This document shows, piece after piece, positions 3,869-32,000 of a DNA stretch of 32,000 bases. The translations under genes were made by a program, and so were the position numbers. Within the stretch, counting starts at the first letter, position 1; each line of letters starts with the position of its first letter. Below the pieces are notes generated by a model. That model saw only the letters and a list, made by a program, of their open reading frames with translations. It searched no databases and had not been told where the DNA came from. Source of the DNA: Candidatus Methanoperedens sp. (GTDB taxonomy: Archaea > Halobacteriota > Methanosarcinia > Methanosarcinales > Methanoperedenaceae). The stretch spans positions 73,322-105,321 of the forward strand of contig JAPZAR010000025.1 in NCBI GenBank assembly GCA_027460535.1, read 5' to 3'.

Positions 3869-4455
3869 AGAAAAAGCCTGATATCCACTATATTTTTAAG
3901 ATTGGTGGAGGGATCAATATCCTTTATCGGATTGGCAGGATTAAAAACATCACTGTTGTGCAATACGATTTTCCTGGATACTATTACAACGTTATTCGAT
4001 GGGACACCTGCGTATATCCATTCTTCCGGGGCCGATGATACTGTAATGTTATCTGAAATAAAGAGAGAAGAGATCTCCACCTTGTGGGCTATGCCCTGCC
4101 TGCCTAACGTCGCGCTCAAGATCCCTGTCAGGTTATTTACAAGGCTGGTTGCATTACGTGGATCGTTGGTATTTTCCAAATACTTTGTACCATTCCACAC
4201 ATATTGCTCTCCAGTCCAATTTAAGATATCATTTTTGAGATTTGAATTATACCCAGGCTCTGTATAATCCAGCGTGTTCAAAATATCCTGGCCCATTACT
4301 GCAAGCTCAGTGTCCATATGCACATTTGAGGTTGACGAGGTCAGAGGCGTCATCGAGGTCGCATCTATTGCATATATAATTACCATAAGCAGGAGCGTTG
4401 TGGCAACCACTCCCTCGAGTGTATGCATCTGGGCTTTTTCATCTAACATTACCAT
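3856..4455 (-). CDS. Type IV pilin-like protein (class III signal peptide)
   Basis: 199-aa ORF. The N-terminus MVMLDEKA|QMHTLEGVVATTLLLMVIIYAI has an acidic residue shortly after the putative cleavage site, as in bacterial type IV pilins. It overlaps both neighbouring genes. Confidence 0.55.
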   Translation of the reverse strand: MVMLDEKAQMHTLEGVVATTLLLMVIIYAIDATSMTPLTSSTSNVHMDTELAVMGQDILNTLDYTEPGYNSNLKNDILNWTGEQYVWNGTKYLENTNDPRNATSLVNNLTGILSATLGRQGIAHKVEISSLFISDNITVSSAPEEWIYAGVPSNNVVIVSRKIVLHNSDVFNPANPIKDIDPSTNLKNIVDIRLFLWRT

Positions 4456-5054
4456 ACCCTCACTGAAATGATAGCTGATTCATTATAGCCTGTGGATGAA
4501 TTTACGATTAAGACAAGCCTCTTGCTCTGGCCGATATTTATGTTTTCAGGAAGTTCTGGGCCACTCTGGTTCATTATACTGCCATCAAGACGTGTTGCCG
4601 AGATATTCACATCAAAAATGATTTCATTGCTTAACAGTCCAAGTTCACCAAGTTCATTATTGTAATAGGTCTGGTTAGAATGGTTCAACTTCATGTTATT
4701 GAAGTAATACAATTTGCCCTGGTCTATAATATTCATAGCCCCTGCTTTATCAGCAACCAGCAGTCGCTCCACCAGCACTGTGCTGACTCTGTCCGCAGCC
4801 AGTACAACTTCATCCGATCCCGACTGGAAAGGAATGAACAATCCATAAATGAACTGGAACACAAAGGCTACAGCAAGGAGAAAAATGCCCATGCCTGCGG
4901 CATAGTCAATCGTCATCTGGGCCTTATCATCTTTCACAGTGCCAATCTTGTTTTGGATTGTATTAAGATTAATGAACAACAATTGCCGCCCATAGCATGG
5001 AAATAGACCAGAGCTCATATGTGAAAAATAATCTTTTAGCACCATTATACTCAT
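4449..5054 (-). CDS. Type IV pilin-like protein (class III signal peptide); true start probably internal
   Basis: The ORF track gives 201 aa, but the pilin-like signal is ..VKDDKA|QMTIDYAAGMGIFLLAVAFVFQFIYGLF. A GTG at 4937 would give a leader of the same length and pattern as the neighbouring MVMLDEKAQMHTLEG protein. The upstream 39 codons look non-coding. Confidence 0.5.
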   Translation of the reverse strand: MSIMVLKDYFSHMSSGLFPCYGRQLLFINLNTIQNKIGTVKDDKAQMTIDYAAGMGIFLLAVAFVFQFIYGLFIPFQSGSDEVVLAADRVSTVLVERLLVADKAGAMNIIDQGKLYYFNNMKLNHSNQTYYNNELGELGLLSNEIIFDVNISATRLDGSIMNQSGPELPENINIGQSKRLVLIVNSSTGYNESAIISVRVW

Positions 5055-5105
5055 AATGATATGCTGCTATTACAAAAACCTTCTGGCCTGATATAGCCGT
5101 TATAT

Positions 5106-5585
5106 TTATCTCACTTCGACCACCGTATCAAGCACCATGGTCTTGAAAGGATACAAAATTATTTTGACATCATACTTTTCACCCGATAACATAACCCCGG
5201 CTGTACCATCGGTATAGACCGAACGATTGGTAACGGTATAGTTTCCAGCGCCGCTGGTCAGATTGTAGGTTATTATCTGGTCTCCAGCCCTGAGGTCGCT
5301 TCCCGGATTTGAGATTTTATAAACAGGCGGCTCTCCGGCCGGAACGATGGATATCTGCCAGTCCGTTCCAACTAATCTATCCCCGGCTTTGTGCTGTATC
5401 TTGATATCGATTCCAGTAGTATCAGTATCGCTCGAAACTACAATAGCAGCCGTAGGTCCTTTCTGGTCAGGTTTTCCCATTCCAAATACGAACATTAAAA
5501 CCAATGAAGCCAGCATTACGGTAACCGCCACCATCAAAATGACTCCTATGACAGGCGATACCGCCTCATCATTCCCTTTCTCCAT
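5106..5585 (-). CDS. Archaeal type IV pilin, DUF1628/Pilin_N family (major-pilin paralog 2)
   Basis: 159 aa. MEKGNDEAVSPVIGVILMVAVTVMLASLV is the signature N-terminus of archaeal Pilin_N (DUF1628) proteins. The C-terminus YDVKIILYPFKTMVLDTVVEVR is paralogous to the upstream gene. AGGA lies ~8 nt before the ATG. Confidence 0.8.
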   Translation of the reverse strand: MEKGNDEAVSPVIGVILMVAVTVMLASLVLMFVFGMGKPDQKGPTAAIVVSSDTDTTGIDIKIQHKAGDRLVGTDWQISIVPAGEPPVYKISNPGSDLRAGDQIITYNLTSGAGNYTVTNRSVYTDGTAGVMLSGEKYDVKIILYPFKTMVLDTVVEVR

Positions 5586-5597
5586 TCTCTATATCCT

Positions 5598-5640
5598 TAA
5601 AAAAAAATAAAAAATGCCCCTCAAAAAAAGTAAAAGGGGC
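5598..5640 (-). terminator. Intercistronic stem-loop plus long U-tract between the two major-pilin paralogs
   Basis: The minus-strand RNA reads GCCCCU-UUUACUUUUUUUG-AGGGGC (6-bp GC stem, arms at 5616-5621 / 5635-5640), followed by A-U6-A-U9 (plus-strand A runs at 5599-5607 and 5609-5614). It lies directly downstream of the 5652 stop and upstream of the 5585 start. Confidence 0.4.
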
Positions 5641-5651
5641 TGGTATTTCAG

Positions 5652-6140
5652 TTACCTTACATCTACTACTGTATCAAGCAACATGGCATTGGACGGGATG
5701 TGAACTAATTTAACATCGTATTTGCCAACCAACATGGCGGTACCACCCATTACACTTTGGTTTGTTACAATAGGGGCTGAAGCATCTGTTGTCGTGTTAG
5801 CGATGATTTGACTTCCAACTGAAAATGTGCCCAATGATGAGTTTGAAGTCACAAATACAGGGGGATTGCCAGCAACGACTACGGATAACTTCCAGTCCCC
5901 GCCTTTCAGTGTATCTCCGCCTTTGTGCTGTACCTTCAGATCAGGTGCTGTTGTATCAGGGTTGTTCGCTCCGGTTATACTTGCTGTCGGCGCGGCTACC
6001 TGCTGGCCACCTAATCCGAACACGAATGCAGCTATCACGGCTGCCAATATCACAGTTATCGCCACCATGAGGATAACACCTATGACAGGCGACACTGCAT
6101 CTTCATTTCTTCTAAACATTTTCATATACATATCCTCCAT
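5652..6140 (-). CDS. Archaeal type IV pilin, DUF1628/Pilin_N family (major-pilin paralog 1)
   Basis: 162 aa. ..MFRRNEDAVSPVIGVILMVAITVILAAVIAAFVF carries the Pilin_N signature. The Ig-like body motif (LKVQHKGGDTLKGGDWKLSV) is typical of this family. The C-terminus YDVKLVHIPSNAMLLDTVVDVR matches paralog 2. Confidence 0.8.
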   Translation of the reverse strand: MEDMYMKMFRRNEDAVSPVIGVILMVAITVILAAVIAAFVFGLGGQQVAAPTASITGANNPDTTAPDLKVQHKGGDTLKGGDWKLSVVVAGNPPVFVTSNSSLGTFSVGSQIIANTTTDASAPIVTNQSVMGGTAMLVGKYDVKLVHIPSNAMLLDTVVDVR

Positions 6141-6141
6141 T

Positions 6142-6345
6142 TTAAATTGCTTCTTTTTTACGTTTGACCACTTTTTCGAGCTTTTTAGCCCACATATCCT
6201 CTACCTGCGTATATTCGCAATCGAGGTAATGATGAACAGCTTTGGCGAGCGCGTCCTTAGTACTACTCTCACCCGTCTTTACTTTCAGGGCTTCGAGGTC
6301 GTCCACCACAAGAACTGTCTGCACATGCACAATCTTCGCCATCAT
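6142..6345 (-). CDS. Small protein, possible ribbon-helix-helix (CopG/Arc-like) DNA-binding protein; first gene of the pilin operon
   Basis: 67 aa. The pattern TVLVVDDLEALKVKTGESSTKDALAKAVHHYL fits a strand-helix-helix layout, and the tail is basic (KKLEKVVKRKKEAI). Its stop lies 1 nt from the start of pilin 1. The functional call is from pattern only. Confidence 0.4.
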   Translation of the reverse strand: MMAKIVHVQTVLVVDDLEALKVKTGESSTKDALAKAVHHYLDCEYTQVEDMWAKKLEKVVKRKKEAI

Positions 6346-6367
6346 TCATCTCCTTGAACAGGTCAAA

Positions 6368-6432
6368 CCGCAATATATATTTGCGGGTACCATTTTTTGG
6401 TAGTGTATCATTATTATCATAATGTATTTAAA
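6368..6432 (-). promoter_or_regulatory. Candidate promoter (TTTAAATA box) and palindromic operator / 5'-UTR hairpin of the pilin operon
   Basis: On the minus strand, TTTAAATA (plus 6425-6432) matches the archaeal TATA consensus, ~80 nt upstream of the 6345 start. Between them lies CCGCAA-TATATAT-TTGCGG (6368-6386), with perfect 6-bp inverted arms. Confidence 0.3.
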
Positions 6433-6705
6433 TGTTACGTATAGGGGGGTTCAATGAAAAAAGTTTGTTAATCGACATGCTGAAACATATTTTTAATGAT
6501 TATTTTGAAAAAACGCTCTTTTTGTGAGGGCTGGTTTTCACGGAAATATCTATCGAATAACAATATATATTATCTGCATATATATATATATTCAAAGGCG
6601 TTGCGGGTGAAAACATCGGGTTTTCACGAGAAATCTGGTAAAGAACAAGAGGAGCATGATTATATAATTCCATCGCTCCGGAGCCTTTCGTTGAAATCGA
6701 ATGTA

Positions 6706-7380
6706 TCAGAACCCATCCTTTATAATTGCCAACACCTCATGTTCATCCAGGTCATGCCATTCTTTATAGGCATCTGCCACAGCGAACATGGTTGTTTCCC
6801 TTATATTCAGGCAAATCAGTTCATCAACATGAGGGCTAACAGTCTCGATCGCATTCTTTGAAGCCGTGGGGACAGCGACTATTATTCTGGCAGGAGAGTA
6901 CTTTCTGATGGAGCTTATAGCTGAAAGCATGGTATAACCTGAAGCCAGCCCATCGTCCACGATTATTACGGTCCGGTCTTTTAATTCAGGAAATGTTCTT
7001 TTACCCCTGAATTTTACTATTCTTTTATTAAGTTCGCGTTTGGCCTCAGAAATAGCAGATTCAATCTCAGCTTTCGTCAGGCCAAGCTGGCGCAATAGCA
7101 TTCTGTTAATGAGCACTTCCCCATCCCAGCTTACAGAGCCAAAACCTGCCTCGGTGTTAAATGGAATTGGGATTTTCCTGACGATAACCATATCCATCGG
7201 GAGGTCAAGTTGTTTTGCAATCATCGCCCCCACGGGAACACCCCCGGATGGTATGGCCAGGACTATGGGGGATTGCGAGTATGTCTTGAGTTTTCGGGCA
7301 AGCAGTTCTCCCGCATGAGCTCTGTTCTTGAAGACGTAATTCTTGTTCCGCAGGTCAGTTTCTTCAACTATTTTTGCCAT
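6706..7380 (-). CDS. Phosphoribosyltransferase-family protein (type I PRTase fold), partner of NAPRTase
   Basis: 224 aa. It has the PRPP-binding loop VIIVDDGLASGYT and the motif AIPSGGVPVG. It lies 18 nt downstream of pncB on the same strand. Confidence 0.8.
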   Translation of the reverse strand: MAKIVEETDLRNKNYVFKNRAHAGELLARKLKTYSQSPIVLAIPSGGVPVGAMIAKQLDLPMDMVIVRKIPIPFNTEAGFGSVSWDGEVLINRMLLRQLGLTKAEIESAISEAKRELNKRIVKFRGKRTFPELKDRTVIIVDDGLASGYTMLSAISSIRKYSPARIIVAVPTASKNAIETVSPHVDELICLNIRETTMFAVADAYKEWHDLDEHEVLAIIKDGF

Positions 7381-7398
7381 GAACTCCCCCCGGGTATG

Positions 7399-8757
7399 CT
7401 ATTTGGCTCTAATTTCTTCTTTTCTGATTTTTTCAACAATTTTTTTTCGAAGATCGATCAATCCTTTACTGAACTCAACCGGATACACCGAAGCAGACTC
7501 AAGTTTCCTGCAACTGTCAGGCAATCTCGAAAAGTTTTCGGCTGCGGTTAGCCTTATCTCCTCAAGCGAAGGCCTACTGCAGACGATTTTCCCTTTTCTG
7601 ACCGCCTGTTCCAGCAAAGGCTCCGCATTATCCACAGTTTCATCTTCCAGCGCTATAATATCTTTTAGAAATTTTCCCTTTTCAATGATGCGCCAGACAA
7701 GTTTTCTTCCGGGAAGCGTCGCCTTTACAGTCTCTTCAGAAAGTTTCATCTTGGGTATATGTTTCCCCTCCCGCATAACGTCAGATAGCTTGTATATACC
7801 GTCAAGAGCAGGGGTCGGGCGCCCTGTTATAAGTTCAGTACCTACACCGAACATATCGATACTTGCACCTTTCCTCATAAGCTCATCTATTTTCCATTCA
7901 TTAAGATCGCCGCTGGCTACTATCTTAACATAATCAAGACCAGAGTCATCAAGTATTCTGCGCACCTGTTTTGAGAGTTCTGCCAGATCCCCGCTGTCAA
8001 GCCTGACCCCCAGGAGCCTCTCTCCCCTCTCCTCAAGCTCCTTTCCTACGATCACTGCTTTTTTGGCGCCTTCTATGCTATTGTAGGTGTCAATCAACAG
8101 GAAGCACCGCTTCGGGAACGCTCTGGCATAGGCGCGGTAGGAATCTATCTCATGGTCGAAGCTCGTTACGAAGGAATGCGCCATGGTACCTGAAACAGGT
8201 ATACCCAGCTTCTTCCCGGCAAGCACATTGGACGTTGAGGAACATCCCCCTATGTAAGTGGCGCGTGTCGCCTCAAGATGCCCGTCGCCCTGGGCCCTGC
8301 GCAGTCCGAACTCCGCAATTGACCTGCCTCTTGCTGCATAGACCACTCGAGAGGCTTTGGTTGCGATGAGTGTCGAGAAGTTCATCTTGTTGAGTATGAA
8401 TGTCTCCACAAGCTGTGCTTCGATTATTGGGGCTGTCACCCGGATGATGGGTTCGAGAGGAAAAGCGATGCTCCCCTCCGGCATCGCAAGGATGTCCCCT
8501 CCAAACCTGAAATCCCGAATGTGTTCAAGAAATTCGTCATCAAAACCCTGGGTTCTTAAGTATTCGATGTCATCTTCCTCGAAACGCAGGTTCCCGATGT
8601 AGTCAAGAACATAGCTCAACCCTGCGGTAACAAGGTATGATCCAAAGGGTATTTTCCTTACAAAATAATCAAATGTGGCTTCGGGATTATGCCCGGACTT
8701 CCAGTATGCCTGCATCATGGTGAGCTGATACAGATCGGTCCGGAGTGCTTCGCTCAT
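7399..8757 (-). CDS. pncB: Nicotinate phosphoribosyltransferase
   Basis: 452 aa. The N-terminus LRTDLYQLTMMQAYW is characteristic of NAPRTase, and SGTMAHSF and GVRLDSGD are typical family motifs. Confidence 0.9.
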   Translation of the reverse strand: MSEALRTDLYQLTMMQAYWKSGHNPEATFDYFVRKIPFGSYLVTAGLSYVLDYIGNLRFEEDDIEYLRTQGFDDEFLEHIRDFRFGGDILAMPEGSIAFPLEPIIRVTAPIIEAQLVETFILNKMNFSTLIATKASRVVYAARGRSIAEFGLRRAQGDGHLEATRATYIGGCSSTSNVLAGKKLGIPVSGTMAHSFVTSFDHEIDSYRAYARAFPKRCFLLIDTYNSIEGAKKAVIVGKELEERGERLLGVRLDSGDLAELSKQVRRILDDSGLDYVKIVASGDLNEWKIDELMRKGASIDMFGVGTELITGRPTPALDGIYKLSDVMREGKHIPKMKLSEETVKATLPGRKLVWRIIEKGKFLKDIIALEDETVDNAEPLLEQAVRKGKIVCSRPSLEEIRLTAAENFSRLPDSCRKLESASVYPVEFSKGLIDLRKKIVEKIRKEEIRAK

Positions 8758-8834
8758 ATGTTTATTATTGAGACCGCTGTTAGATTAAAATTATCTGAAA
8801 TGCTCTTAGAAAATAATTAATAGATTGGAAGCTC

Positions 8835-9209
8835 TTGTTCAACCCAATGAAAGCAAAACTCAGAGGCCATCACCTTATATGCCTGAATTTTTTTAGAGGA
8901 GAGGGCTATTCAGAAGATTTTATCAAAAATATTTATTCGGTTATATCTAAAGAAAAAGTGGACATAGTAAAAGGACCGGATGAGGTTTGCGCCAGATGCC
9001 CGTATCTGAAGGATAATAAATGTTCAAGTGGAGAATATACCGATGAAAAAATCCTGCTACAGGATAAAGAAGCGTTACGGCTCCTCGGGTTCAGACCGGG
9101 CGAGACCGTTGACTGGAAGATAATTGAGGCCAGGCTACCAAAAATTATAGAAGAATGGAAGACTGAATTCTGCCAGGACTGCGGATATCTGAAAGTCTGT
9201 TTTGGCTAG
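8835..9209 (+). CDS. DUF1284-family Cys-rich protein
   Basis: The track start is TTG; the ATG at 8847 gives MKAKLRGHHLICLNFFRGEGY, the typical DUF1284 N-terminus. Cys clusters CARCPYLKDNKC and CQDCGYLKVC are present. Confidence 0.7.
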   Translation: MFNPMKAKLRGHHLICLNFFRGEGYSEDFIKNIYSVISKEKVDIVKGPDEVCARCPYLKDNKCSSGEYTDEKILLQDKEALRLLGFRPGETVDWKIIEARLPKIIEEWKTEFCQDCGYLKVCFG

Positions 9210-9796
9210 ACCGTTTGCTGTGAGAACATTAAATATCCTCCAAAACCAATTGCCCATAGTAATATGGGATATGCCATCATCCTCTCCATTCCCCCGGCAC
9301 CGAATCCGAGATAAATCTCAAATGCAAATAAAATAAGAGCTACCAGGCTCGTTATACCCATCAACACAGAGAAATAAGAGAACGGTGCTTTCGCCAGATT
9401 GATGGATAAGATCGTAGATAATCCTCCGAAAAGGAAAACTATCAGGGATACAACTAAATGAATCACTCCAGCAGTTTCAGGGAACAATCCGACTCCTATA
9501 GCCCCGATCCCGGTGAGAGCGAAAAATATTGAAACCATGGTGCTATGAAATTCACCCCAGATGAAATACGAACCCAGCAGGATAAGCAGTCCAAGGAGAG
9601 TTGCGGAGGTGTTAAAGATGATGGCAGAGGGTTGATGTACCGTACACGTCGTCCCGCTGCAGGTAGCCCCCAGGTCGCTTATGAAATTACTTGAAACACT
9701 ATATCCGGGATACAGGAATTCCGCCACCTGCATCGCCATGATAAACTGAACCGCACCTATGAAAAATAACATCCCCGCCGCATTTTTTTTGTCCAT
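9206..9796 (-). CDS. DUF998-like polytopic membrane protein
   Basis: The track ORF extends to 9904 and overlaps the upstream gene. The internal ATG at 9796 (MDKKNAAGMLFFIGAVQFIMAMQVAEFLYPGYSVSSNFISDLGA) fits DUF998 N-termini. About 6 hydrophobic helices follow. Confidence 0.65.
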   Translation of the reverse strand: MDKKNAAGMLFFIGAVQFIMAMQVAEFLYPGYSVSSNFISDLGATCSGTTCTVHQPSAIIFNTSATLLGLLILLGSYFIWGEFHSTMVSIFFALTGIGAIGVGLFPETAGVIHLVVSLIVFLFGGLSTILSINLAKAPFSYFSVLMGITSLVALILFAFEIYLGFGAGGMERMMAYPILLWAIGFGGYLMFSQQTV

Positions 9797-9833
9797 CTGA
9801 TTAACTAATCTGTCCGCCAGTATAAAGAATTTA

Positions 9834-10547
9834 TTAACGACATCGAGATGGATTTCGGATAAGGTGCACGGGTATTGCCCCGTTGTGCACTGCCGTTGCC
9901 ACAAGTGCCCCGCTCACTCCAATTTTTTCCAGAGACTCTATGTCGTGCATATCCCTGATCCCGCCTCCCACCAGAACATTGTGGTTTGATACTCCAACTA
10001 TCGTTTTCAAGAATTCTGTATCAATCCCAGCGCCTGTTCCAACCCTGCTTAGCTCCAGGATGATAATATCCTCTATTTCAACCCCATTTAACGATTTTAC
10101 AAGCTCCTCCGGATTCATGTCCATCTTCCTGTCTTTTGTCAAGACCATTCCATTTTTCATGTCTATGCTCACGTTAATCCTGCCTGTAGAACGTTTGCTT
10201 GCATTTTTGATCAGGTCATATGAAGCAGTCTCAGTTCCCATGATGACAATATCGGCAATCTCTGCACATTTTTCTACGTCATCCATATTTTCCACGCCAA
10301 TATCCACCATTGTCCTTGTTTTTTTGGATATTTCCTTTATCAGCCCAAAATTGTCCCCTTGATGCTGTAATCGGTCAAGGTCGGCGATATAGACCTCTTT
10401 CGGCGAAAGCGCAGATATTATATCACGTGGATTGGATGAATCGCATATCTTGCTGCCCTTTATCGGCTGATACTTGGCCCTCTCCCCCCTTACGGCGTGG
10501 ACTGCATTACCATTGAGTATGTCCAGCACGAAAATAATTCGAAACAT
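9834..10547 (-). CDS. HisA/HisF-family (beta/alpha)8-barrel protein
   Basis: 237 aa. VLDILNGNAVHAVRGER, ADLDRL and VGGGIRDMHDIE match the HisA/HisF phosphate-binding barrel family that is conserved as a stand-alone paralog in methanogen-type archaea. Confidence 0.75.
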   Translation of the reverse strand: MFRIIFVLDILNGNAVHAVRGERAKYQPIKGSKICDSSNPRDIISALSPKEVYIADLDRLQHQGDNFGLIKEISKKTRTMVDIGVENMDDVEKCAEIADIVIMGTETASYDLIKNASKRSTGRINVSIDMKNGMVLTKDRKMDMNPEELVKSLNGVEIEDIIILELSRVGTGAGIDTEFLKTIVGVSNHNVLVGGGIRDMHDIESLEKIGVSGALVATAVHNGAIPVHLIRNPSRCR

Positions 10548-10577
10548 TTCGTATCAATTCCCACATCCAATTTTCGA

Positions 10578-10832
10578 CTATCTATCATAGATATTTTTCC
10601 TGTACCCAACTTTTAAAATTAATATCCTAAGTATTTTGTTATCGATATCCATTATGACCCTATAATCACCCACTCGCAGCTTATAACCCGGATCTCCCAC
10701 AAGTTTAGTCACATAAGCTTCAGGTCTTACTCTAATCCTTTCCAATACTGCAATTATTCTTTCCTGGACATTTCTTTCCAGTTTCTTAAGCTGTCTGAGA
10801 GCTTTGTCCGAAAAGATGATCTCATAAGTCAT
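10578..10832 (-). CDS. RelE/ParE-family type II toxin
   Basis: 84 aa. The sequence (FSDKALRQLKKL..YKLRVGDYRVIMDIDNKILRILILKVGYRKNIY) is a classic RelE/StbE pattern. It has a 4-nt ATGA overlap with the upstream antitoxin. Confidence 0.85.
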   Translation of the reverse strand: MTYEIIFSDKALRQLKKLERNVQERIIAVLERIRVRPEAYVTKLVGDPGYKLRVGDYRVIMDIDNKILRILILKVGYRKNIYDR

Positions 10833-11047
10833 AGACCAAGCTCTTTCTTGACCTCAGCTAAGGAATGGAATTTGCCTTCTTTTATCTCGGCACGAGCAAG
10901 GGCTATTTCTTTTCTTGTCTCCTCACCAAGTTCCTGGGAATCCTCCACCAAATTCCAGATTACTTCCTCATAGGTCTCTTTGTCAGAGATCTTCCTCTTA
11001 ATTAACTCTTTTTGTAAGCCTTCACTTATCTGAATGGAAGTTGCCAT
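10829..11047 (-). CDS. Type II antitoxin (small acidic protein coupled to RelE)
   Basis: The track start is a GTG at 11056; the ATG at 11047 gives MATSIQISEGLQKELIKRK.. The protein is acidic and helical. It is overlapped by the toxin gene start. Confidence 0.7.
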   Translation of the reverse strand: MATSIQISEGLQKELIKRKISDKETYEEVIWNLVEDSQELGEETRKEIALARAEIKEGKFHSLAEVKKELGL

Positions 11048-11054
11048 TAATATC

Positions 11055-11080
11055 ACTATAATCTACTATAATCTATTATA
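11055..11080 (-). promoter_or_regulatory. Tandem 10-bp direct repeats / TATA-like sequence immediately upstream of the antitoxin
   Basis: The plus strand has ACTATAATCT twice in perfect tandem (11055-11064 and 11065-11074), followed by the partial copy ATTATA. The repeats start 8 nt upstream of the ATG at 11047. Confidence 0.3.
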
Positions 11081-11215
11081 GTATTAAGTTTTTTCTTCCC
11101 CGATACCCGTGCAGTGGACAGGTCTTACAGGGTAATCACTGACCAATACTGTCGCTGTGAAGCAGACCCATAACAAATTCGAAACATAAATGTATTAGTG
11201 CATCAATCTGATTCA

Positions 11216-11923
11216 ATGATTATGAAATTACTTGTAAGCCCGATCAACGTTGAAGAAGCAAACATCTGCAGACTCGGTGGAGCGGATATCATAGACGTGA
11301 AAAACCCCAGGGAAGGTTCCCTTGGTGCTAATTTCCCATGGATGATACGCGCTGTGAAAAAAGCCGCGGGCAAGGTGCCGGTGAGTGCAACAATTGGCGA
11401 TTTTAATTATAAACCCGGTACTGCATCACTGGCAGCGCTGGGGGCAGCAGTGGCGGGGGCAGAATACATCAAAGTGGGATTGTATGATATCCAGACAAAG
11501 GAGCAGGCTCTGGACATGCTGACCAATATTGTTCGCTCGGTTAAGGACTTTGATAAGAATAAGAAAGTGGTGGCATCCGGTTATTCAGATTTCAAGCGGA
11601 TCAATTCTATCTCGCCTTTTGAACTACCTGCAGTTGGGGCAAAGGCTGGTGTGGATGTAGTAATGATGGATACGGGCATCAAAGATGGACGCTCAACCTT
11701 CGAATTCCTCCAGGAACAAGAGCTTACTGAATTCGTTAAGAGCGCGCAAAAGCACGGACTTCAAACAGCCATTGCAGGAACGATCACGTTTGTGGACATC
11801 CCGGCGTTAAAACGCATTTCACCAGACATCATTGGAGTAAGGGGCTGCGTGTGCGGAGGGGACCGTAATTCAGCCATCCAGAAGGAACTTGTGGAACGAT
11901 TGAAAACTGAGATTCAAGAGTAA
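11216..11923 (+). CDS. mfnB: (5-formylfuran-3-yl)methyl phosphate synthase (methanofuran biosynthesis, MJ1099 family)
   Basis: MIMKLLVSPINVEEANICRLGGADIIDVKNPREGSLGANFPW matches the MfnB/DUF556 family N-terminus. The track start (GTG at 11198) is probably too far upstream. Confidence 0.8.
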   Translation: MIMKLLVSPINVEEANICRLGGADIIDVKNPREGSLGANFPWMIRAVKKAAGKVPVSATIGDFNYKPGTASLAALGAAVAGAEYIKVGLYDIQTKEQALDMLTNIVRSVKDFDKNKKVVASGYSDFKRINSISPFELPAVGAKAGVDVVMMDTGIKDGRSTFEFLQEQELTEFVKSAQKHGLQTAIAGTITFVDIPALKRISPDIIGVRGCVCGGDRNSAIQKELVERLKTEIQE

Positions 11924-11936
11924 TAAAACCGCATAC

Positions 11937-13097
11937 TCAATTATATTCCTTTATCACTTTATAATTTGTAGTCCTTTCCACCGGTATCCTGCCTGCATTC
12001 TTGATCAAATGTATAAGCCTCTCTTTAGGCATATACTCCGGCGATACGCTCCCTGCAGCATGTGTTATGCGCTCTTCCATTACGGTACCGTCGATATCAT
12101 TCGCACCGTAATGCAGCGCGATTTGAGCTATCTTCTCCCCAGCCATCACCCAATAGGTTTTGATGTTATTGACATAACCGTTCAACAAAAGCCGCGAGAC
12201 TGCGATTGTCTTCAAGTCGTCAAACCCTGTGGGACTGAACTTAACAATACCTCTCTTTTGAAGGTCGGTATTATCAGGGTGGAATCTTAAAGGTATGAAT
12301 GCCTGGAATCCCCGGGTCTTTTTCTGAAGTTCTCTTATCCTCAGAATATGGTCCACAATATCTTCTGGTGTTTCGATGTGACCATAGAGCATAGTGGCAT
12401 TGCTCCTTACGCCCAATTCATGTGCTTTCTCCATGACCTCAAGCCACCTTTCACCGCTAACCTTGTGAGGACAGACCTTTTGTCTCGTCTTTTCATTGAA
12501 TATCTCTCCTCCGCCTCCAGGGAGACTGGTGAGCCCTGCGTTTTTCAGGCGCAAGAGCACCTCGCTTGCGCTCATTCCAGTCGTTTCAGCAAGATACCCT
12601 ATCTCCACTGCGGTGTAAGCCTTCAATGACATATCAGGATATTTTTCATGGAGCCTGGCAAGCACTTCTTCATAGTATTCGAAAGGTAGTTTCGGGTTGA
12701 GAGAACCCACGATGTGCAATTCAGTGGCGCCCATTTGTGAGGCTTTTTCAGCTTTTTCCATTATCTCATCTATGCTGAGAGTAAAAGCGCCCTTCTGTCC
12801 CTCTTCCCTGAAATATGCGCAAAAACTGCATTTTGAGATGCAGATATTGGTGTAGTTTATGTGACAGTTAGTTACGAACATGACATTGTCACCAACAGTT
12901 TTTCTGCGCACGTGATCTGCAAGTGACCCGATAAGTGAGAGGTTCCTTGACTCCAGAAGACTCATGCCATCCCCGAAATCAAGTTCTTCCGAAGCCTGTA
13001 TTTTTTCTATTATTGAAGAGAGGTCTTCCATCGGATTGTTCTTATACGCAGATAGTAAATAAGGGCATCGTTCAGCGTTGCTTCTTGAGTTCATCAA
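11937..13097 (-). CDS. Radical SAM enzyme of the MqnC/MqnE/CofH family (futalosine-pathway type)
   Basis: It has the CxxxCxxC-type cluster motif NYTNICISKCSFCAY, plus PGGGGEIF, ATMLYGHIE and GFQAFIPLRF. The likely real start is the ATG at 13031 (MEDLSSIIEKI..), which removes the overlap with the upstream gene. Confidence 0.75.
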   Translation of the reverse strand: MMNSRSNAERCPYLLSAYKNNPMEDLSSIIEKIQASEELDFGDGMSLLESRNLSLIGSLADHVRRKTVGDNVMFVTNCHINYTNICISKCSFCAYFREEGQKGAFTLSIDEIMEKAEKASQMGATELHIVGSLNPKLPFEYYEEVLARLHEKYPDMSLKAYTAVEIGYLAETTGMSASEVLLRLKNAGLTSLPGGGGEIFNEKTRQKVCPHKVSGERWLEVMEKAHELGVRSNATMLYGHIETPEDIVDHILRIRELQKKTRGFQAFIPLRFHPDNTDLQKRGIVKFSPTGFDDLKTIAVSRLLLNGYVNNIKTYWVMAGEKIAQIALHYGANDIDGTVMEERITHAAGSVSPEYMPKERLIHLIKNAGRIPVERTTNYKVIKEYN

Positions 13098-23322: not shown

Positions 23323-23808
23323 ATGATCATTATCGGAATTGACCCAGGACTTGCCACTGTCGGCTTTGGGGTCTTACGAAAAGAGAAAAACACGATAACA
23401 CCTGTCAGCTATGGATGCATAAGAACCCCTGCTGAAAAACAGGTTCCTGAACGTCTTCTGGAAATATACTCTGAGATCTGCACATTGCTTGAAAAGTATG
23501 CCCCGTCCGCGGTCGCAGTCGAGAGACTCTTTTTCAATAAGAATGTCACAAACGCGATGAGCGTGAGTGAGGCAAGGGGTGTCATCTTTCTTGCCGTGCA
23601 GCAAAAGAGTATCCCGATCTTTGAATATACCCCGAACCAGATAAAACAGGCCATTACAGGCTCGGGGCGGGCGGATAAAAGACAGATGCAGGAAATGATA
23701 AAAAGGCTTTTGAACCTGGATGAACTGCCGCAGCCCGATGATGCGGCGGACGGGCTTTCGATTGCTTTATGCCATATAAATATAATTGAAACTGGATTAT
23801 GCCATTAA
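23323..23808 (+). CDS. ruvC: Crossover junction endodeoxyribonuclease RuvC (bacterial type)
   Basis: 161 aa. MIIIGIDPGLATVGFGVL.., VAVERLFFNKN, ..ITGSGRADKRQMQEM.. and ..PDDAADGLSIALCH carry the full RuvC catalytic-residue series (D..E..D/H). Confidence 0.9.
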   Translation: MIIIGIDPGLATVGFGVLRKEKNTITPVSYGCIRTPAEKQVPERLLEIYSEICTLLEKYAPSAVAVERLFFNKNVTNAMSVSEARGVIFLAVQQKSIPIFEYTPNQIKQAITGSGRADKRQMQEMIKRLLNLDELPQPDDAADGLSIALCHINIIETGLCH

Positions 23809-23813
23809 TAACG

Positions 23814-23859
23814 TTTTTTATGGCTGTGAGCGTGTGTGGTCTATTCATTCGGAATAGGC
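23814..23859 (+). terminator. Oligo-T tract and short hairpin immediately after ruvC
   Basis: T6 at 23814-23819 lies 6 nt after the TAA. A hairpin follows (GTCTATTC-attcg-GAATAGGC, 23839-23859, with one G-U pair). Archaeal terminators are typically oligo-T. Confidence 0.3.
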
Positions 23860-24222
23860 TCAAATTGAAAACTAACTCCCGCCAATCCCTAAACTTTATC
23901 TTATTTTTAGGAAGTCGAGCCCCATAAACGCAATATGAGGCATTTTTTGTCTTTAAGCGGTACCAGTCTATTTTTAATAGCAGGGCGATTGATGACGGCA
24001 TGAAAGATTTTATCAGTGCATGCTCAAGGCAATATAGGCGAATTTTAACTGGAGAAATAAAGGTGTTCAGTAAGTTTTTATATTATGTGCTTTATATGTA
24101 TACCTTATATAGAGAGTTTCCTCGCCTAAAGCAAAAACTATATAATACAATAATTAAAGAGTATACGGTGGTGAAAGGCTCCAAAACTTTTAACATAAAA
24201 ATTCTTATAGAGGATGTACCCA

Positions 24223-24483
24223 ATGAATGACGAAGAAATAAAATTTGAAGAAATTAATCTCGAAGAAAAAAGGATTTTATTGGACATTCTTGGTTATGAA
24301 GTTGGCGAAGCCGGTATACTTTTAGATAAAAATACTAAGAAAGAGCATATCTGTCCAATAACAGACAGCGTTGTTTTTATTGAGAATGCGTCTGTTTTGC
24401 CTGGCTCCTCCGTTGTTATTAACACTTCTGAACTTTCTTTAGCGGAATATTTTACAAAATTCGTTGAAATGCGATGTAAGTAA
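24223..24483 (+). CDS. Hypothetical small acidic protein (island ORF-A)
   Basis: GAGGA lies 8 nt upstream of the ATG at 24223 (the track start at 24214 is also an ATG). The product is 86 aa and Glu/Asp-rich (MNDEEIKFEEINLEEKRILLDILGYEVGEAG..). Its stop overlaps the next start (TAATG). I recognise no family. Confidence 0.5.
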   Translation: MNDEEIKFEEINLEEKRILLDILGYEVGEAGILLDKNTKKEHICPITDSVVFIENASVLPGSSVVINTSELSLAEYFTKFVEMRCK

Positions 24484-25247
24484 TGATTATTCCTGCCGAT
24501 ATACCTCCCGACCTTCTAGATAAAACTCTTCCTGAACTTTTAAAACTTGTTGCCTTACAAAAACTAACAGGAAAAATATTAGATTGGGCTACACAAAGAA
24601 TAAAGGAACTGTGGGAGAAACGAGAGTATGGATTTACTCCTGAACCTGATGTCGCCTCTGGGCTACAAAAAATTAGTAAAAGCGACGCATATAGAAGAAT
24701 GAAAGAGTGTATCGGAAATCATCGTTTTTTAGGATTGGTAAAACTTGGGTTCAGAGTTGATGAACTTAACGAACAGGGAAATACAACAGCAATAGCCAAG
24801 ATTAAGAGTAATGTATTTGAAAAACATGGGGTTGAAGGAATTAGAATACTTACAATGGGTACAACAGGAGTACTTACGGGAATAATCCAGTACCTTAGTG
24901 ACATGAAACTCAAAAACGATTATAGCCAAGCTATTATGGCAGACCATTTTGAGAAGATTATTAAAAACTGGATGCAGATAACGATATTCCATCAGGCAGT
25001 ACAAGGGCAAAGAACATTAGAAAAAGGCATTCTTACTTATATGAAGGCTAACTACGATATATTTTTTGTATTTTCGATGGGCACCGCAAGTGAACAAGCC
25101 ACAAAACTTATTGCACAACTTAAAAAAGATGGAATCATTAAGAAGAATGGGTATATGTTTGACCTATATCGAAGAAGGGAAGTGGCTGGAAGAGTAATGC
25201 ATACGTGGGTATTCCAAAATATAAAAGAGTGGAGACCATTTGTTTGA
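24483..25247 (+). CDS. Hypothetical 254-aa protein (island ORF-B)
   Basis: This is a long uninterrupted ORF in a ~30% GC region, where stop codons are frequent by chance, and it is coupled to ORF-A. I could find no Walker A, no TM helices and no motif I can assign. The C-terminal segment YDIFFVFSMGTASEQATKLIAQLKKDGI has an alpha/beta-fold look only. Confidence 0.6.
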   Translation: MIIPADIPPDLLDKTLPELLKLVALQKLTGKILDWATQRIKELWEKREYGFTPEPDVASGLQKISKSDAYRRMKECIGNHRFLGLVKLGFRVDELNEQGNTTAIAKIKSNVFEKHGVEGIRILTMGTTGVLTGIIQYLSDMKLKNDYSQAIMADHFEKIIKNWMQITIFHQAVQGQRTLEKGILTYMKANYDIFFVFSMGTASEQATKLIAQLKKDGIIKKNGYMFDLYRRREVAGRVMHTWVFQNIKEWRPFV

Positions 25248-25501
25248 GACGGTCATCTTTAATTTTATTTCCATGAATATGAACAATAAACACTGAGATT
25301 AAATACAAACCTCTGACTAGTTGGGATATTAGCGAACAATTCAACGAATATCTATTTATCATAAATCATATAATTACAAACATATTTTTATATCCCAAGG
25401 AACACCTCTAAAAACGAAACTAAAAATATAAAACAAGCATGTATAGAAGATATGAATAATTACATAATTTCAAATTTCATATTAATATAATGAGATAATA
25501 T

Positions 25502-26092
25502 ATGATTTCACATATATATGGCGAGATCGCGCACGTGGGCGGAGGATTTGTTGTGATCGATGTCGGGGGCATGGGATATCAGGTCAATGTGACAAAACCT
25601 GTGTTGCAGGAGCTTGCTACAAAAAAAGAAAAAATAAAACTGTACACATACCTCCATGTCAGGGATGATGCCCTGATGCTCTATGGGTTCATGACATCTT
25701 CCGAGCTTGAGATGTTCAAACTTTTAATAAGTGTGACGAGGGTTGGCCCGCAGATAGCGCTATCCATCCTGTCCCAGATAAAGATCGAAGAACTCGCTGG
25801 AGCTATAATCTACGAGGATGAAAAGATCCTGACAAGTATTTCAGGTATCGGCCCGAAAAATGCCAAGAGATTGATACTGGAACTCAAGGATAAGATAAAA
25901 AAGAAAATGGAAAATTATCAGGGTCACATTCCTTCGAGCAATGTGAATTATGACGCAGTTAGCGCGCTTGTATCGCTTGGATTCACACAGCGTGAAGCCC
26001 AGGAAGCCGTGGATTCTGTTTCATCGGGATTGAAAGAGCCCACAGTCCAGGTATTGATCAAAGCCGCACTTACAAGATTGAAAGAGCGTTAG
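25502..26092 (+). CDS. ruvA: Holliday junction branch migration complex subunit RuvA
   Basis: MISHIYGEIAHVGGGFVVIDVGGMGYQVNV.. is the OB domain. ISGIGPKNAKRLILELKDK provides the HhH motifs. The C-terminal domain III (ALVSLGFTQREAQEAV) is also present. Confidence 0.9.
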   Translation: MISHIYGEIAHVGGGFVVIDVGGMGYQVNVTKPVLQELATKKEKIKLYTYLHVRDDALMLYGFMTSSELEMFKLLISVTRVGPQIALSILSQIKIEELAGAIIYEDEKILTSISGIGPKNAKRLILELKDKIKKKMENYQGHIPSSNVNYDAVSALVSLGFTQREAQEAVDSVSSGLKEPTVQVLIKAALTRLKER

Positions 26093-26095
26093 AGT

Positions 26096-27082
26096 ATGGA
26101 AGAAAGAATCATCACCCCGGTCTTGCTGAATGAGGAAAAGGAAGATATAACCATCCGTCCAGGCCGGCTTGACGAATTTATCGGTCAGAATGCCCTGAAG
26201 GAATCCCTGAAGGTATTCATCGAAGCCTCAAAAAAACGCGGCGAACCTCTTGACCACATCCTCTTTTCAGGCCCGCCAGGACTCGGGAAGACAACGCTTG
26301 CCCATATAATAGCCCGTGAGATGGGCACCGGTATTAAAGCCACGTCAGGACCTGTCCTGGAAAAACCCGGGGACCTGGCGGCAATCCTGACAACACTAAA
26401 GAATGGTGATGTGCTATTCATCGATGAGATACACCGCTTGAATTCTGTTATAGAGGAAATACTCTATCCTGCAATGGAGGATTTTGAGATCGATGTAATG
26501 ATAGGGGAGGGACCGAGCGCCAGGTCGATAAAGCTTGATCTTGAGCATTTTACCCTTATAGGTGCGACCACAAAAGTGGGCCTTCTGGGTTCGCCTTTCA
26601 GGGACAGGTTTGGTTTCATATCACGTCTCACCCTCTATGAAGTCGGTGAGCTTGTGCAGGTAGTAAAGAGAAGTGCCTACATACTGGGAATCCCGGTAAC
26701 GCAGGACGGATCGGTGGAAATAGCCAAACGCAGCAGGGGCACGCCCAGGATCGCGAATCGGCTGCTCCGGCGTGTGAGGGATTTTGCTATGGTGAGGGCC
26801 CAAGGAGAGATTACGCAGGTGGTGGCAGATAATGCGCTTACTATGCTTGGTATAGACAAACTCGGACTGGATGACCTCGACAGGCGCATACTTTCTGTGA
26901 TAGCGGATGATTTTGATGGAGGACCCGTAGGCGTGAAGACCATTGCAATCTCAGTGGGCGAAGAGGTCAGGACGATAGAAGAAGTTTATGAACCATATCT
27001 TATCCAGATCGGATTTATAAAGCGAACGCCGCAGGGAAGGGAGACAACCCCGGCTGCAAGGAAGCATATCGCAGCATCATGA
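26096..27082 (+). CDS. ruvB: Holliday junction ATP-dependent DNA helicase RuvB
   Basis: It has [11 protein letters not shown], Walker A ([11 protein letters not shown]), Walker B ([10 protein letters not shown]), sensor regions ([23 protein letters not shown]) and a winged-helix C-terminus. It starts 4 nt after ruvA. Confidence 0.95.
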
Positions 27083-30976: not shown

Positions 30977-31040
30977 TTATGGAACAGATGATTTGATATC
31001 TATTCGACCTGCGATTTTTTAGGTGACCGTTTCAATTCGT

Positions 31041-31120
31041 GTTGGTAGTTAGGTCAATGTGCAACACAACACAAATATCTTCTTTGCCTAAAACTTTTAG
31101 TTGGTAGTTAATCCAAATGT
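31041..31120. repeat. Two copies of GTTGGTAGTTA(N2-3)TC(C)AAATGT-like motif, 59 bp apart, in an intergenic region
   Basis: Copy 1 is at 31041-31060 (gttggtagttaggtcaatgt) and copy 2 at 31100-31120 (gttggtagttaatccaaatgt). The 11-nt core is identical. Confidence 0.3.
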
Positions 31121-31269
31121 TAATCACAAGTACATATATTGTTTTCTGACACAATGCAAGGAGTAGATTTAACGTCTCCCTGGAAGACAGCGGTCTACTC
31201 CCTCACGACAGCTCAATTAAGAGTCATATAAATATTCTTATCAGATATAAGAAAAAGAATATGCCAAAG

Positions 31270-32000
31270 TCAAGTTATTTTTGGAACAACTGAAAATCCA
31301 TTGTTATTCCAGTTTGCAAAGTTATCTGCTGTATCGTTGAATACAACACCTTTGTCTGTCGTAACCGTAATATCATCTATATACAAACCGCCATTTCCAC
31401 CATTAGAGTAAGGTAAATTAAAGAACAATATTTTTATCTCTTTACCAATATAACTAGACAGGTCTATTTTATGTGTAGTCCAAGGCTGTTTACCATAAAA
31501 TATTGAAACACTACAAACATCTGTACTATCACAGATCTTTCGCTTAGCTTCCTGATAATATGAACTCACAGAATAATTTATTTTATATTCAAGAGTCGCT
31601 GAATTAACCCCCTTTAGATTTATGTAATTTTTTGTTTCAATATTAGACGTATATTTGCCAGACCAGAATACATTGTTTATTGAATTCGTCAACCGAATAG
31701 CATCTATATGGGGGAAACAACATGTGTTATCAGCAACAATTTTGAGCGTATGAATACCTGAGGTTGTTATAGTTAAGGTTCCTTGCTTTTCCCAGATTCC
31801 AGAACTCAGATACCAGCTTCCAGTGCTTGAAGCGATCCCATTATCAATAACTTTAACATTGTCAAGATATATATCCTCTGGACGAGACCATTCCGCAGCA
31901 TATTTTATCTCAAGATTGTAAGAACCCACAGATGGAAAGTTAATATCATATTCTACAGAATTTGGACTACTGCCACCATTAAAAATATGCTTGCCACCTG
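31270..32000 (-). CDS. Partial CDS (5' end off-window): secreted beta-sandwich protein with a CBM6/35-like carbohydrate-binding module pattern
   Basis: The reading frame stays open from 31929 to the window edge (..GGKHIFNGGSSPNSVEYDINFPSVGSYNLEIKYAA..). The stretch GSYNLEIKYAAEWSRPEDIYLDNVKV...HTLKIVADNTCCFPHIDAIRLT resembles CBM6/35 modules. The gene is AT-rich (~30% GC in a hand-counted 50-nt sample). Confidence 0.5.
   Translation of the reverse strand, partial: GGKHIFNGGSSPNSVEYDINFPSVGSYNLEIKYAAEWSRPEDIYLDNVKVIDNGIASSTGSWYLSSGIWEKQGTLTITTSGIHTLKIVADNTCCFPHIDAIRLTNSINNVFWSGKYTSNIETKNYINLKGVNSATLEYKINYSVSSYYQEAKRKICDSTDVCSVSIFYGKQPWTTHKIDLSSYIGKEIKILFFNLPYSNGGNGGLYIDDITVTTDKGVVFNDTADNFANWNNNGFSVVPKIT

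Follow-up and report, generated by a model that had tools for sequence, protein, structure and literature searches.

A low-GC islet between ruvC and ruvA

Methanoperedens archaea oxidize methane anaerobically and are unusually rich in extrachromosomal elements, and to our knowledge almost none of their accessory genes has an assigned function. We analyzed a 32,000-nucleotide stretch of a Candidatus Methanoperedens sp. genome (GCA_027460535.1, contig JAPZAR010000025.1, positions 73,322 to 105,321; hereafter the window), in which ruvC is separated from ruvA and ruvB by an islet that carries two coupled open reading frames, ORF-A and ORF-B. A first-pass annotation of the sequence had placed the end of ruvC at 23808 and the start of ruvA at 25502, with an AT-rich gap between them, and Pfam searches and a GC scan bear this out (Table 1). 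Scanned in 300-nt windows, the island has a GC content of 0.26-0.38, and its per-kb values are 0.33-0.34, compared with 0.42-0.57 for the neighboring genes and ~0.44 for the window as a whole; the ruvC-ruvA interval and the last kb of the window are its GC minimum. An earlier hand count of 27-30% is right for parts of the island and somewhat low for all of it.

The 86-aa ORF-A with a GAGGA motif 8 nt upstream and the 254-aa ORF-B overlapping it at TAATG were confirmed as first described. The segment from 23323 to 27082 is identical in all 3760 of 3760 nt to contig JAPZAT010000038.1 of GCA_027460495.1, and the two proteins are each 100% identical to O8C66_07885 (ORF-A) and O8C66_07880 (ORF-B). 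Both are labeled only "hypothetical" in the sources consulted, and for 10 distant cluster representatives a look-up gave neither names nor taxa. Searches of the literature on Alba together with toxin-antitoxin systems and on mobile elements of Methanoperedens turned up no description of the pair.

The islet is an insertion with a 14-bp target duplication

For comparison with the window, a scan of one genome per species supplied ruvA loci from 12 further species of Methanoperedens (fetched loci carry L numbers). Neither ORF-A nor ORF-B was detected by tblastn at any of the 12. In six of these relatives (L009, L010, L011, L013, L016 and L018) ruvC abuts ruvA within ~10 nt, and the empty site reads ...TGYCATATAAATATAAT / GAGATAAT..ATG (ruvA). 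The 14-mer CATATAAATATAAT is single-copy at the empty sites (L009, L013 and L016) and occurs twice in the window, flanking the island, where the right-hand copy is CATATTAATATAAT. Homology to the ruvC of the relatives stops at 23786 and restarts at 25474/25478, and the ancestral GAGATAAT is retained directly upstream of the ruvA ATG. Because the single target of the empty sites flanks the island on both sides, this is a true insertion, of 1,705 bp with one copy of the repeat included. The island is a horizontally acquired islet with a 14-bp target duplication, placed precisely at the ruvC/ruvA junction. The suspected foreign origin of the island and the indel polymorphism predicted across related loci were both found.

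As a result of the insertion, ruvC has new terminal codons (ancestral ...CHINIMR-stop, now ...CHINIIETGLCH-stop). The identical filled site, with the pair intact, is present on 7 contigs from several samples of the source population. Transcription of ruvAB now probably relies on read-through or starts in the AT-rich right flank, which may provide a promoter. Neither flank of the insert matched anything but its own species when all fetched loci were searched by blastn and tblastx, and the idea that the flanks are remnants of a larger element is unsupported, as nothing similar occurs among those loci. No tRNA was found in the window and no integrase in the islet. Terminal inverted repeats were not convincing either; a weak gapped TGAAA..TTATG similarity was seen by eye and is not claimed.

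We also considered the 14-mer as a conserved attachment (att) site or element end and rejected this, since the surroundings of 12 other copies of the pair show no enrichment for it. One exact CATATAAATATAAT does occur at L021/L022:6570-6583 (minus strand), 158 nt upstream of an independent copy that stands alone elsewhere, and none of 200 shuffles (0/200) matched as well as the L021 occurrence.

On the ruvC side of the island the T6 tract of the first-pass annotation is present. The hairpin reported with it exists as a 9-bp stem, but its energy is not significant against shuffled sequences (z = -0.97), and no terminator-like site was called after ruvC.

Table 1. Coordinates of the islet, the ruv genes and features of other loci discussed in the text
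Locus	Feature	Position	Strand	Remarks
Window	ruvC	23323..23808	+	Pfam RuvC, E=6.5e-52
Window	Left target copy CATATAAATATAAT	23773..23786	+	From comparison with empty sites
Window	Inserted DNA	23787..25477	+	GC ~0.34; homology of relatives breaks and resumes at its edges
Window	Insert left flank	23787..24051	.	Not common to other copies of the pair; no gene remnant recognized
Window	T6 tract	23814-23819		After ruvC
Window	Hairpin, 9-bp	~23838-23860		ruvC side of island
Window	Promoter-like block CAAAAACTATATAATA	24132..24147	+	TFB-recognition element (BRE)/TATA-like; ~77-90 nt upstream of ORF-A
Window	Ribosome binding site (RBS) GAGGA	24210..24214	+	8 nt before ORF-A ATG
Window	ORF-A	24223..24483	+	86 aa, isoelectric point (pI) 4.5, predicted alpha/beta fold
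Window	ORF-B	24483..25247	+	254 aa, pI 9.5; ATG overlaps ORF-A stop (TAATG)
Window	T-rich tract	25258..25270	+	Directly after ORF-B stop; candidate archaeal terminator, from sequence only
Window	Insert right flank	25266..25477	.	GC down to 0.18 per 100 nt; not common to other copies
Window	Right target copy CATATTAATATAAT	25478..25491	+	13/14 identical; followed by GAGATAAT and ruvA ATG
Window	ruvA	25502-26092	+	Pfam RuvA_N/HHH_5/RuvA_C; intact
Window	ruvB	26096-27082	+	Pfam RuvB_N/AAA_lid_4/RuvB_C; intact
L001/L002/L029	Integrative element	4224-12400		Low-GC; begins with a 428-447-aa tyrosine integrase with C-terminal zinc ribbon
L020	Solo islet			Between AF_0136_C-domain gene (downstream of S7 ribosomal cluster) and radical-SAM gene
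L021/22	Solo islet			Between Glu_synthase and CbiA
L025/26	Solo islet			Before leuD-leuB
L041	Solo islet			Between glyA and rpoH-rpoB
L008	Long ruvA-ruvB spacer	6586-7023
L010	Long ruvA-ruvB spacer	6601-7008
L011	Long ruvA-ruvB spacer	6601-6782
L012	Long ruvA-ruvB spacer	6586-6806

The ruvC 3′ end is a recurrent insertion site

The insertion point had been regarded as unusual; it proved not to be unique. Three of the other species carry different cargo at the same junction. In L014 (4257-6000) the junction holds 1.7 kb in which a ParE toxin (E=4.6e-11) is preceded by a 75-aa ORF and accompanied by a HicB-like antitoxin (E=2.3e-9); L008 (5121-6000) has a GNAT acetyltransferase (E=3e-13) in 0.9 kb, and L017 (5431-6000) a 122-aa ORF in 0.6 kb. 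Because these unrelated cassettes start within ~6 nt of one another, the ruvC 3′ end is a recurrent insertion hotspot. The Methanoperedens ruvC 3′ end may be a dedicated site that captures small selfish cassettes via a site-preferring mechanism. The company that the pair keeps at this hotspot supports, as guilt by location and without proving function, a toxin-antitoxin (TA)-type reading of the two genes.

Operon anatomy of the islet

The DNA common to copies of the pair comprises only the promoter-like block, ORF-A and ORF-B; the widest span in common is 24052-25265 of the window, shared with L006. The BRE/TATA-like motif CRAAAACTATATAAT is kept in independent copies (the window, L006, L020 and L021), and the block probably acts as the promoter of the pair. 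An AGRGGA RBS is likewise kept in other copies. ORF-A homologs begin at the same Met as the ATG at 24223; an alternative upstream ATG at 24214 would give an 89-aa protein.

A third ORF of 76 aa (24000-24230, plus strand) overlaps the promoter block and the ORF-A start and has no family match. The DNA conserved in L006 starts no earlier than 24052, inside this ORF, which is probably spurious.

The two genes are conserved and strictly co-inherited

Length-conserved homologs were identified for both proteins, 49 for ORF-B and 44 for ORF-A. Among 1.84 billion cluster representatives searched with a profile, 204 are relatives of ORF-B, nearly all of ~250 aa. The ratio of nonsynonymous to synonymous divergence (omega, Nei-Gojobori method, synonymous divergence of at least 0.4) is 0.04-0.20 for ORF-A and 0.12-0.23 for ORF-B. 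With conserved homologs and purifying selection in both families (omega 0.04-0.23 overall), the concern that the ORFs might be spurious can be set aside, and both are real genes.

The pairing was evaluated with hidden Markov models of both families on every ORF of every fetched locus. Wherever the upstream sequence suffices, ORF-A lies directly 5′ of ORF-B on the same strand, with a gap of -20 to +22 nt; the two genes always co-occur. This order holds in a copy at 36% identity, and even two very distant ORF-B relatives (profile E=4e-31 and 3e-18) have an overlapping upstream gene of 87-90 aa that matches ORF-A (E=6e-21 and 1e-11). Pairwise distances in the two families are correlated with r=0.95 over 136 locus pairs, with ORF-A slightly more conserved. 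The pair occurs in genomes of Methanoperedens and other Methanosarcinales-type archaea and on unassigned archaeal contigs. In combination, these results identify ORF-A and ORF-B as a unit of archaeal mobile DNA that is old and strictly inherited together.

Some copies are decaying. ORF-B is fragmented or truncated and ORF-A intact in L037, L040, L042 and L043, and in L039 a C-terminal ORF-B fragment alone remains. The bias toward broken ORF-B beside intact ORF-A is suggestive of a cost of ORF-B but is not significant.

ORF-B resembles a nucleic-acid binder

The first-pass annotation could place neither protein in a family. This stands insofar as no curated family was matched, and is to be amended for the C-terminal domain of ORF-B, which resembles the Alba/IF3-C fold in Foldseek searches. 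The AlphaFold2 model of ORF-B (mean predicted local distance difference test score, pLDDT, 89.7) has an N-terminal domain of nine helices (residues 1-161) and a C-terminal domain with beta-alpha-beta-alpha-beta-beta topology (residues 167-246, or ~163-246) and a pI of 10. Against the PDB, this C-terminal domain retrieved Alba/Sso10b/Mja10b and the RNase P/MRP subunits Pop6-7, with template modeling (TM) scores of 0.57-0.71 normalized to the target and probabilities of 0.98-1.0 but weak E-values of 0.1-0.5. Pfam Alba (PF01918) matched 3 of 101 ORF-B relatives (best E=1.4e-4). We regard the predicted Alba/IF3-C-like character of the domain as a resemblance at the level of fold, not as family membership. 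A Foldseek search of BFVD with ORF-B gave one full-length uncharacterized siphovirus protein (E=5e-3) and SpoVS/Alba-fold matches, which are functionally uninformative.

Across the 101 diverse relatives the conserved ORF-B positions are G89, Y224 (97% conserved), K108, K114, R121 and the hydrophobic core, and there is no conserved D, E or H column. Given this lack of conserved acidic or His columns, ORF-B is unlikely to be a metal-dependent nuclease, a transposase or an HUH enzyme. From its model and its residue conservation, ORF-B looks like a nucleic-acid binder and not a nuclease. The median pI of the ORF-B family is ~9.1 and that of the ORF-A family 4.5 (range 4.2-5.35). The ORF-A model (pLDDT 83) had no fold match in the PDB by Foldseek. 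When 101 ORF-B and 33 ORF-A members were searched individually against PADLOC and Pfam, all matches other than Pfam Alba were noise, and with PADLOC-DB v2 neither protein of the window matched and only noise-level single matches appeared among the 101 ORF-B relatives.

The pair travels on integrative elements and stands alone at many sites

Several copies lie in recognizable mobile DNA. In L001, L002 and L029 the pair directly follows a tyrosine integrase; this spot is the edge of a >8-kb region of low GC, whose far boundary lies beyond the fetched sequence. In L005 it is inside an element with D5_N/DUF5906 primase-helicase, ribbon-helix-helix (RHH), helix-turn-helix (HTH) and DUF87 (HerA-type) genes, in L047 it shares a low-GC island of 6 kb with a GIY-YIG gene, and in L048 a distant relative adjoins a 260-aa integrase. 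The ORF-B profile found no homolog in IMG/VR, and tblastn found none among INPHARED phages or PLSDB plasmids. The contexts described here draw in part on a metagenome scan with alignment A1.

Behind the pair, the L001/L002/L029 element continues with a minus-strand gene of 240 aa, followed by small ORFs, a 492-aa protein of no assigned family and an RHH gene. The L023 copy has as near neighbors a reverse transcriptase of group II intron type (YADD motif) and a gene of the AbiEii family (L023:2-1396 and 2026-2961). Upstream of some copies lies a gene of 430-464 aa. We rejected the notion that these genes encode a common integrase: only that of L001 is an integrase, the L023 gene reads as the group II intron reverse transcriptase, and the L025 gene resembles neither.

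The position of the pair immediately after the integrase in L001 and L002, next to one in L048, and immediately after an HTH regulator in the divergent control region of the D5-primase element of L005 would also suit a regulatory or chromatin-type module of integrative elements. The islet in the window would then be what is left, without function and slowly decaying, of a larger integrated element that has lost its other genes by deletion. Such a module could, for example, combine a nucleoid or transcription factor of Alba-like type and its modulator, for control of lysogeny, copy number or superinfection immunity. The decay of several solo copies fits this, as does the appearance of ORF-B as a DNA/RNA binder devoid of catalytic residues, and the 14-bp direct repeats of the window resemble short att cores; PMC4158269 reports an integrated element with a 15-nt repeat at its flanks. 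However, a pure element regulator is expected to vanish fast after loss of its element. Most of the copies found stand alone, are intact and keep a conserved promoter of their own. In the window the flanks hold no remnant of other element genes, and the copy is intact and identical in the 7 contigs from several samples. We consider it rather unlikely that the pair is such a regulator, while regarding the idea as credible.

Solo islets are the commoner context. They measure 1.2-1.7 kb, have a GC content of 0.31-0.37 and lie between unrelated housekeeping genes at differing sites (L006, L020, L021/22, L025/26, L028, L031, L032/35/40 and L041; Table 1 gives the neighbors of several). Two-gene islets at so many sites with no other gene inside could suggest that the islet is itself a mobile element, minimal but autonomous, such as a tiny transposon or an integrated mini-replicon, in which ORF-B, with the help of ORF-A, would be a new recombinase or initiator that inserts the unit. 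The clean target duplication in the window, the conserved Y224 and the exact 14-mer near the independent L021 copy could be cited for this. Yet ORF-B shows no DDE, HUH or PD-(D/E)xK motif and no tyrosine-recombinase R-K-H-R-H constellation, the copies share no conserved ends or inverted repeats, and the 14-mer shows no enrichment near the 12 other copies. No second copy occurs in any fetched locus, and the long assembled contigs suggest a low copy number. The pair is also cargo in elements that have their own integrase or primase. Self-mobility is therefore improbable.

The same distribution bears on whether ORF-A and ORF-B are host accessory factors of RuvABC, for instance junction-binding cofactors recruited to the operon. 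They lie in the same orientation as the surrounding ruvC, ruvA and ruvB genes, and branched DNA might in principle be bound by a basic nucleic-acid-binding domain. But they are missing from the ruv loci of all 12 other species, have homologs in unrelated contexts and on mobile elements, and combine a foreign composition with a promoter of their own. The distribution data essentially refute this explanation, to which we assign almost no weight.

A possible addiction or conflict cassette

Against this background we tentatively favor, as a possible though not a secure reading, that the islet is a mobile accessory cassette of TA-like addiction or inter-element conflict, in which ORF-B is the binder and ORF-A its neutralizing or regulatory partner. 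ORF-B would be a non-enzymatic, basic nucleic-acid-binding effector that acts through its Alba/IF3-C-like C-terminal domain, and ORF-A a co-translated acidic partner that binds ORF-B and neutralizes or regulates it. Together they would form a toxin-antitoxin-like addiction module or an inter-element conflict (defense/exclusion) module, which would ride integrative elements as cargo and persist solo once the carrier was lost. Its insertion in the window spared ruvC, with an altered tail, as well as ruvA and ruvB. We infer a TA or anti-mobile-element function from the layout of the genes, their mobility, their neighbors at the hotspot and the acidic/basic pairing.

Several results weigh against this reading. 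Neither protein matched Pfam, NCBIfam, PADLOC or PHROGs, and no similarity of the pair to known toxins, antitoxins or defense proteins was found in sequence or fold. Profile searches of PDB sequences from alignments A1, A2 and A3 returned nothing. The Alba similarity of ORF-B is weak (Foldseek E ~0.1), and the ORF-B of the window has no Pfam Alba match at E of 1 or below and so does not reach the gathering threshold of the family. ORF-A has no recognizable DNA-binding antitoxin domain (Pfam, 33 members; PDB fold) and is slightly more conserved than ORF-B, unlike many type II antitoxins. Solo copies are mostly neighbored by housekeeping genes and not by defense islands. The excess of broken ORF-B over broken ORF-A is statistically non-significant, given that ORF-B is three times longer. 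Lastly, the purifying selection may reflect history on mobile elements and not a function in the solo state.

A more specific, joint proposition is that the pair is an undescribed conflict system, with an Alba-fold effector and an acidic inhibitor, and that the ruvC 3′ end is a capture site. We hold this combination to be doubtful. In such a system the acidic partner could possibly be a nucleic-acid mimic.

Comparison with known systems

Type II TA operons such as ParDE, HicAB and the GNAT/RHH system TacAT resemble the pair in their co-directional, coupled two-gene layout with the small gene first, their own promoter, patchy mobile distribution, occurrence in low-GC islets and carriage by integrative elements, and ParE/HicB and GNAT cassettes occupy the same ruvC-ruvA hotspot in sister genomes. 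They differ in that neither partner here is homologous to a known toxin or antitoxin, ORF-A lacks an RHH, HTH, AbrB or Phd domain and is conserved at least as well as ORF-B, and ORF-B, at 254 aa, lacks a catalytic signature.

The C-terminal domain of ORF-B resembles the Alba/Sso10b/Pop6-Pop7/Rpp20-Rpp25 group in its predicted topology (TM 0.6-0.7), and it is strongly basic (pI 10). In contrast to ORF-B, Alba proteins are stand-alone, chromosomal and of ~90-100 aa; the domain in ORF-B is fused to a 160-aa helical domain, obligately paired with a small acidic protein and mobile, and the E-values are weak, with the window ORF-B missed by Pfam Alba.

Casposons generate 14-15-bp target duplications. 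The islet is like casposon insertions and non-autonomous insertion elements in being a discrete insertion with a 14-bp duplication at an AT-rich target, and unlike them in having no transposase, Cas1, terminal inverted repeats, conserved ends or signs of multiple copies.

The cargo of archaeal integrated elements, known as "morons" and "dark matter islands" (Makarova et al., 2014, PMC4158269; Makarova et al., 2019, PMC6393860), is comparable in consisting of uncharacterized, fast-moving genes near integrases, primases and HerA-like ATPases, and in the short direct repeats that flank integrated DNA. The unit here differs in having two genes only and usually no integrase. Term searches of PMC4158269 and PMC6393860 did not find the family of the pair. 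Membership in known TA, defense, Alba or insertion sequence families fails on the features that define homology.

What is new here is a well-delimited, undescribed archaeal gene pair together with a recurrent insertion hotspot. The analysis delimits a conserved, strictly paired, mobile gene family that is unnamed in the sources, with a comparison of empty and filled sites. The structural model is confident, and the proposed mechanism, a basic Alba-like binder with an acidic partner, is testable. Should the pair prove to be an addiction or defense module, the archaeal TA and defense repertoire would gain a class of Alba-fold effectors. The reuse of one junction by unrelated cassettes offers a tractable case of how small selfish cassettes enter archaeal chromosomes, and one in which entry can be studied without visible disruption of an essential-looking operon.

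Other observations on the ruv locus and the window

A bacterial-type RuvA is encoded at all 12 of the other Methanoperedens loci fetched, RuvB in all ten loci for which enough sequence was fetched, and nine loci have a linked RuvC. The sole match outside Methanoperedens in the ruvA scan was a Saccharibacteria genome at 40% identity. Judging from these sequences, the distribution of RuvABC is consistent with an old bacterial acquisition.

The linkage of ruvC to ruvAB is also broken in other ways, as L007, L012 and L015 have no ruvC within 6 kb upstream of ruvA (at 6001). The spacer between ruvA and ruvB varies too, and measures 182-438 bp in four loci (Table 1) against 30 bp or less in other genomes. 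That of L008 contains two long palindromes and has the look of a miniature inverted-repeat transposable element (MITE). The L010 spacer equals that of L011 plus an insert of ~226 bp with inverted termini, which is likewise MITE-like in appearance. At the far end of the window, a further low-GC patch (0.346) spans 31001-32000, around a minus-strand ORF of 219 aa (31270-31929).

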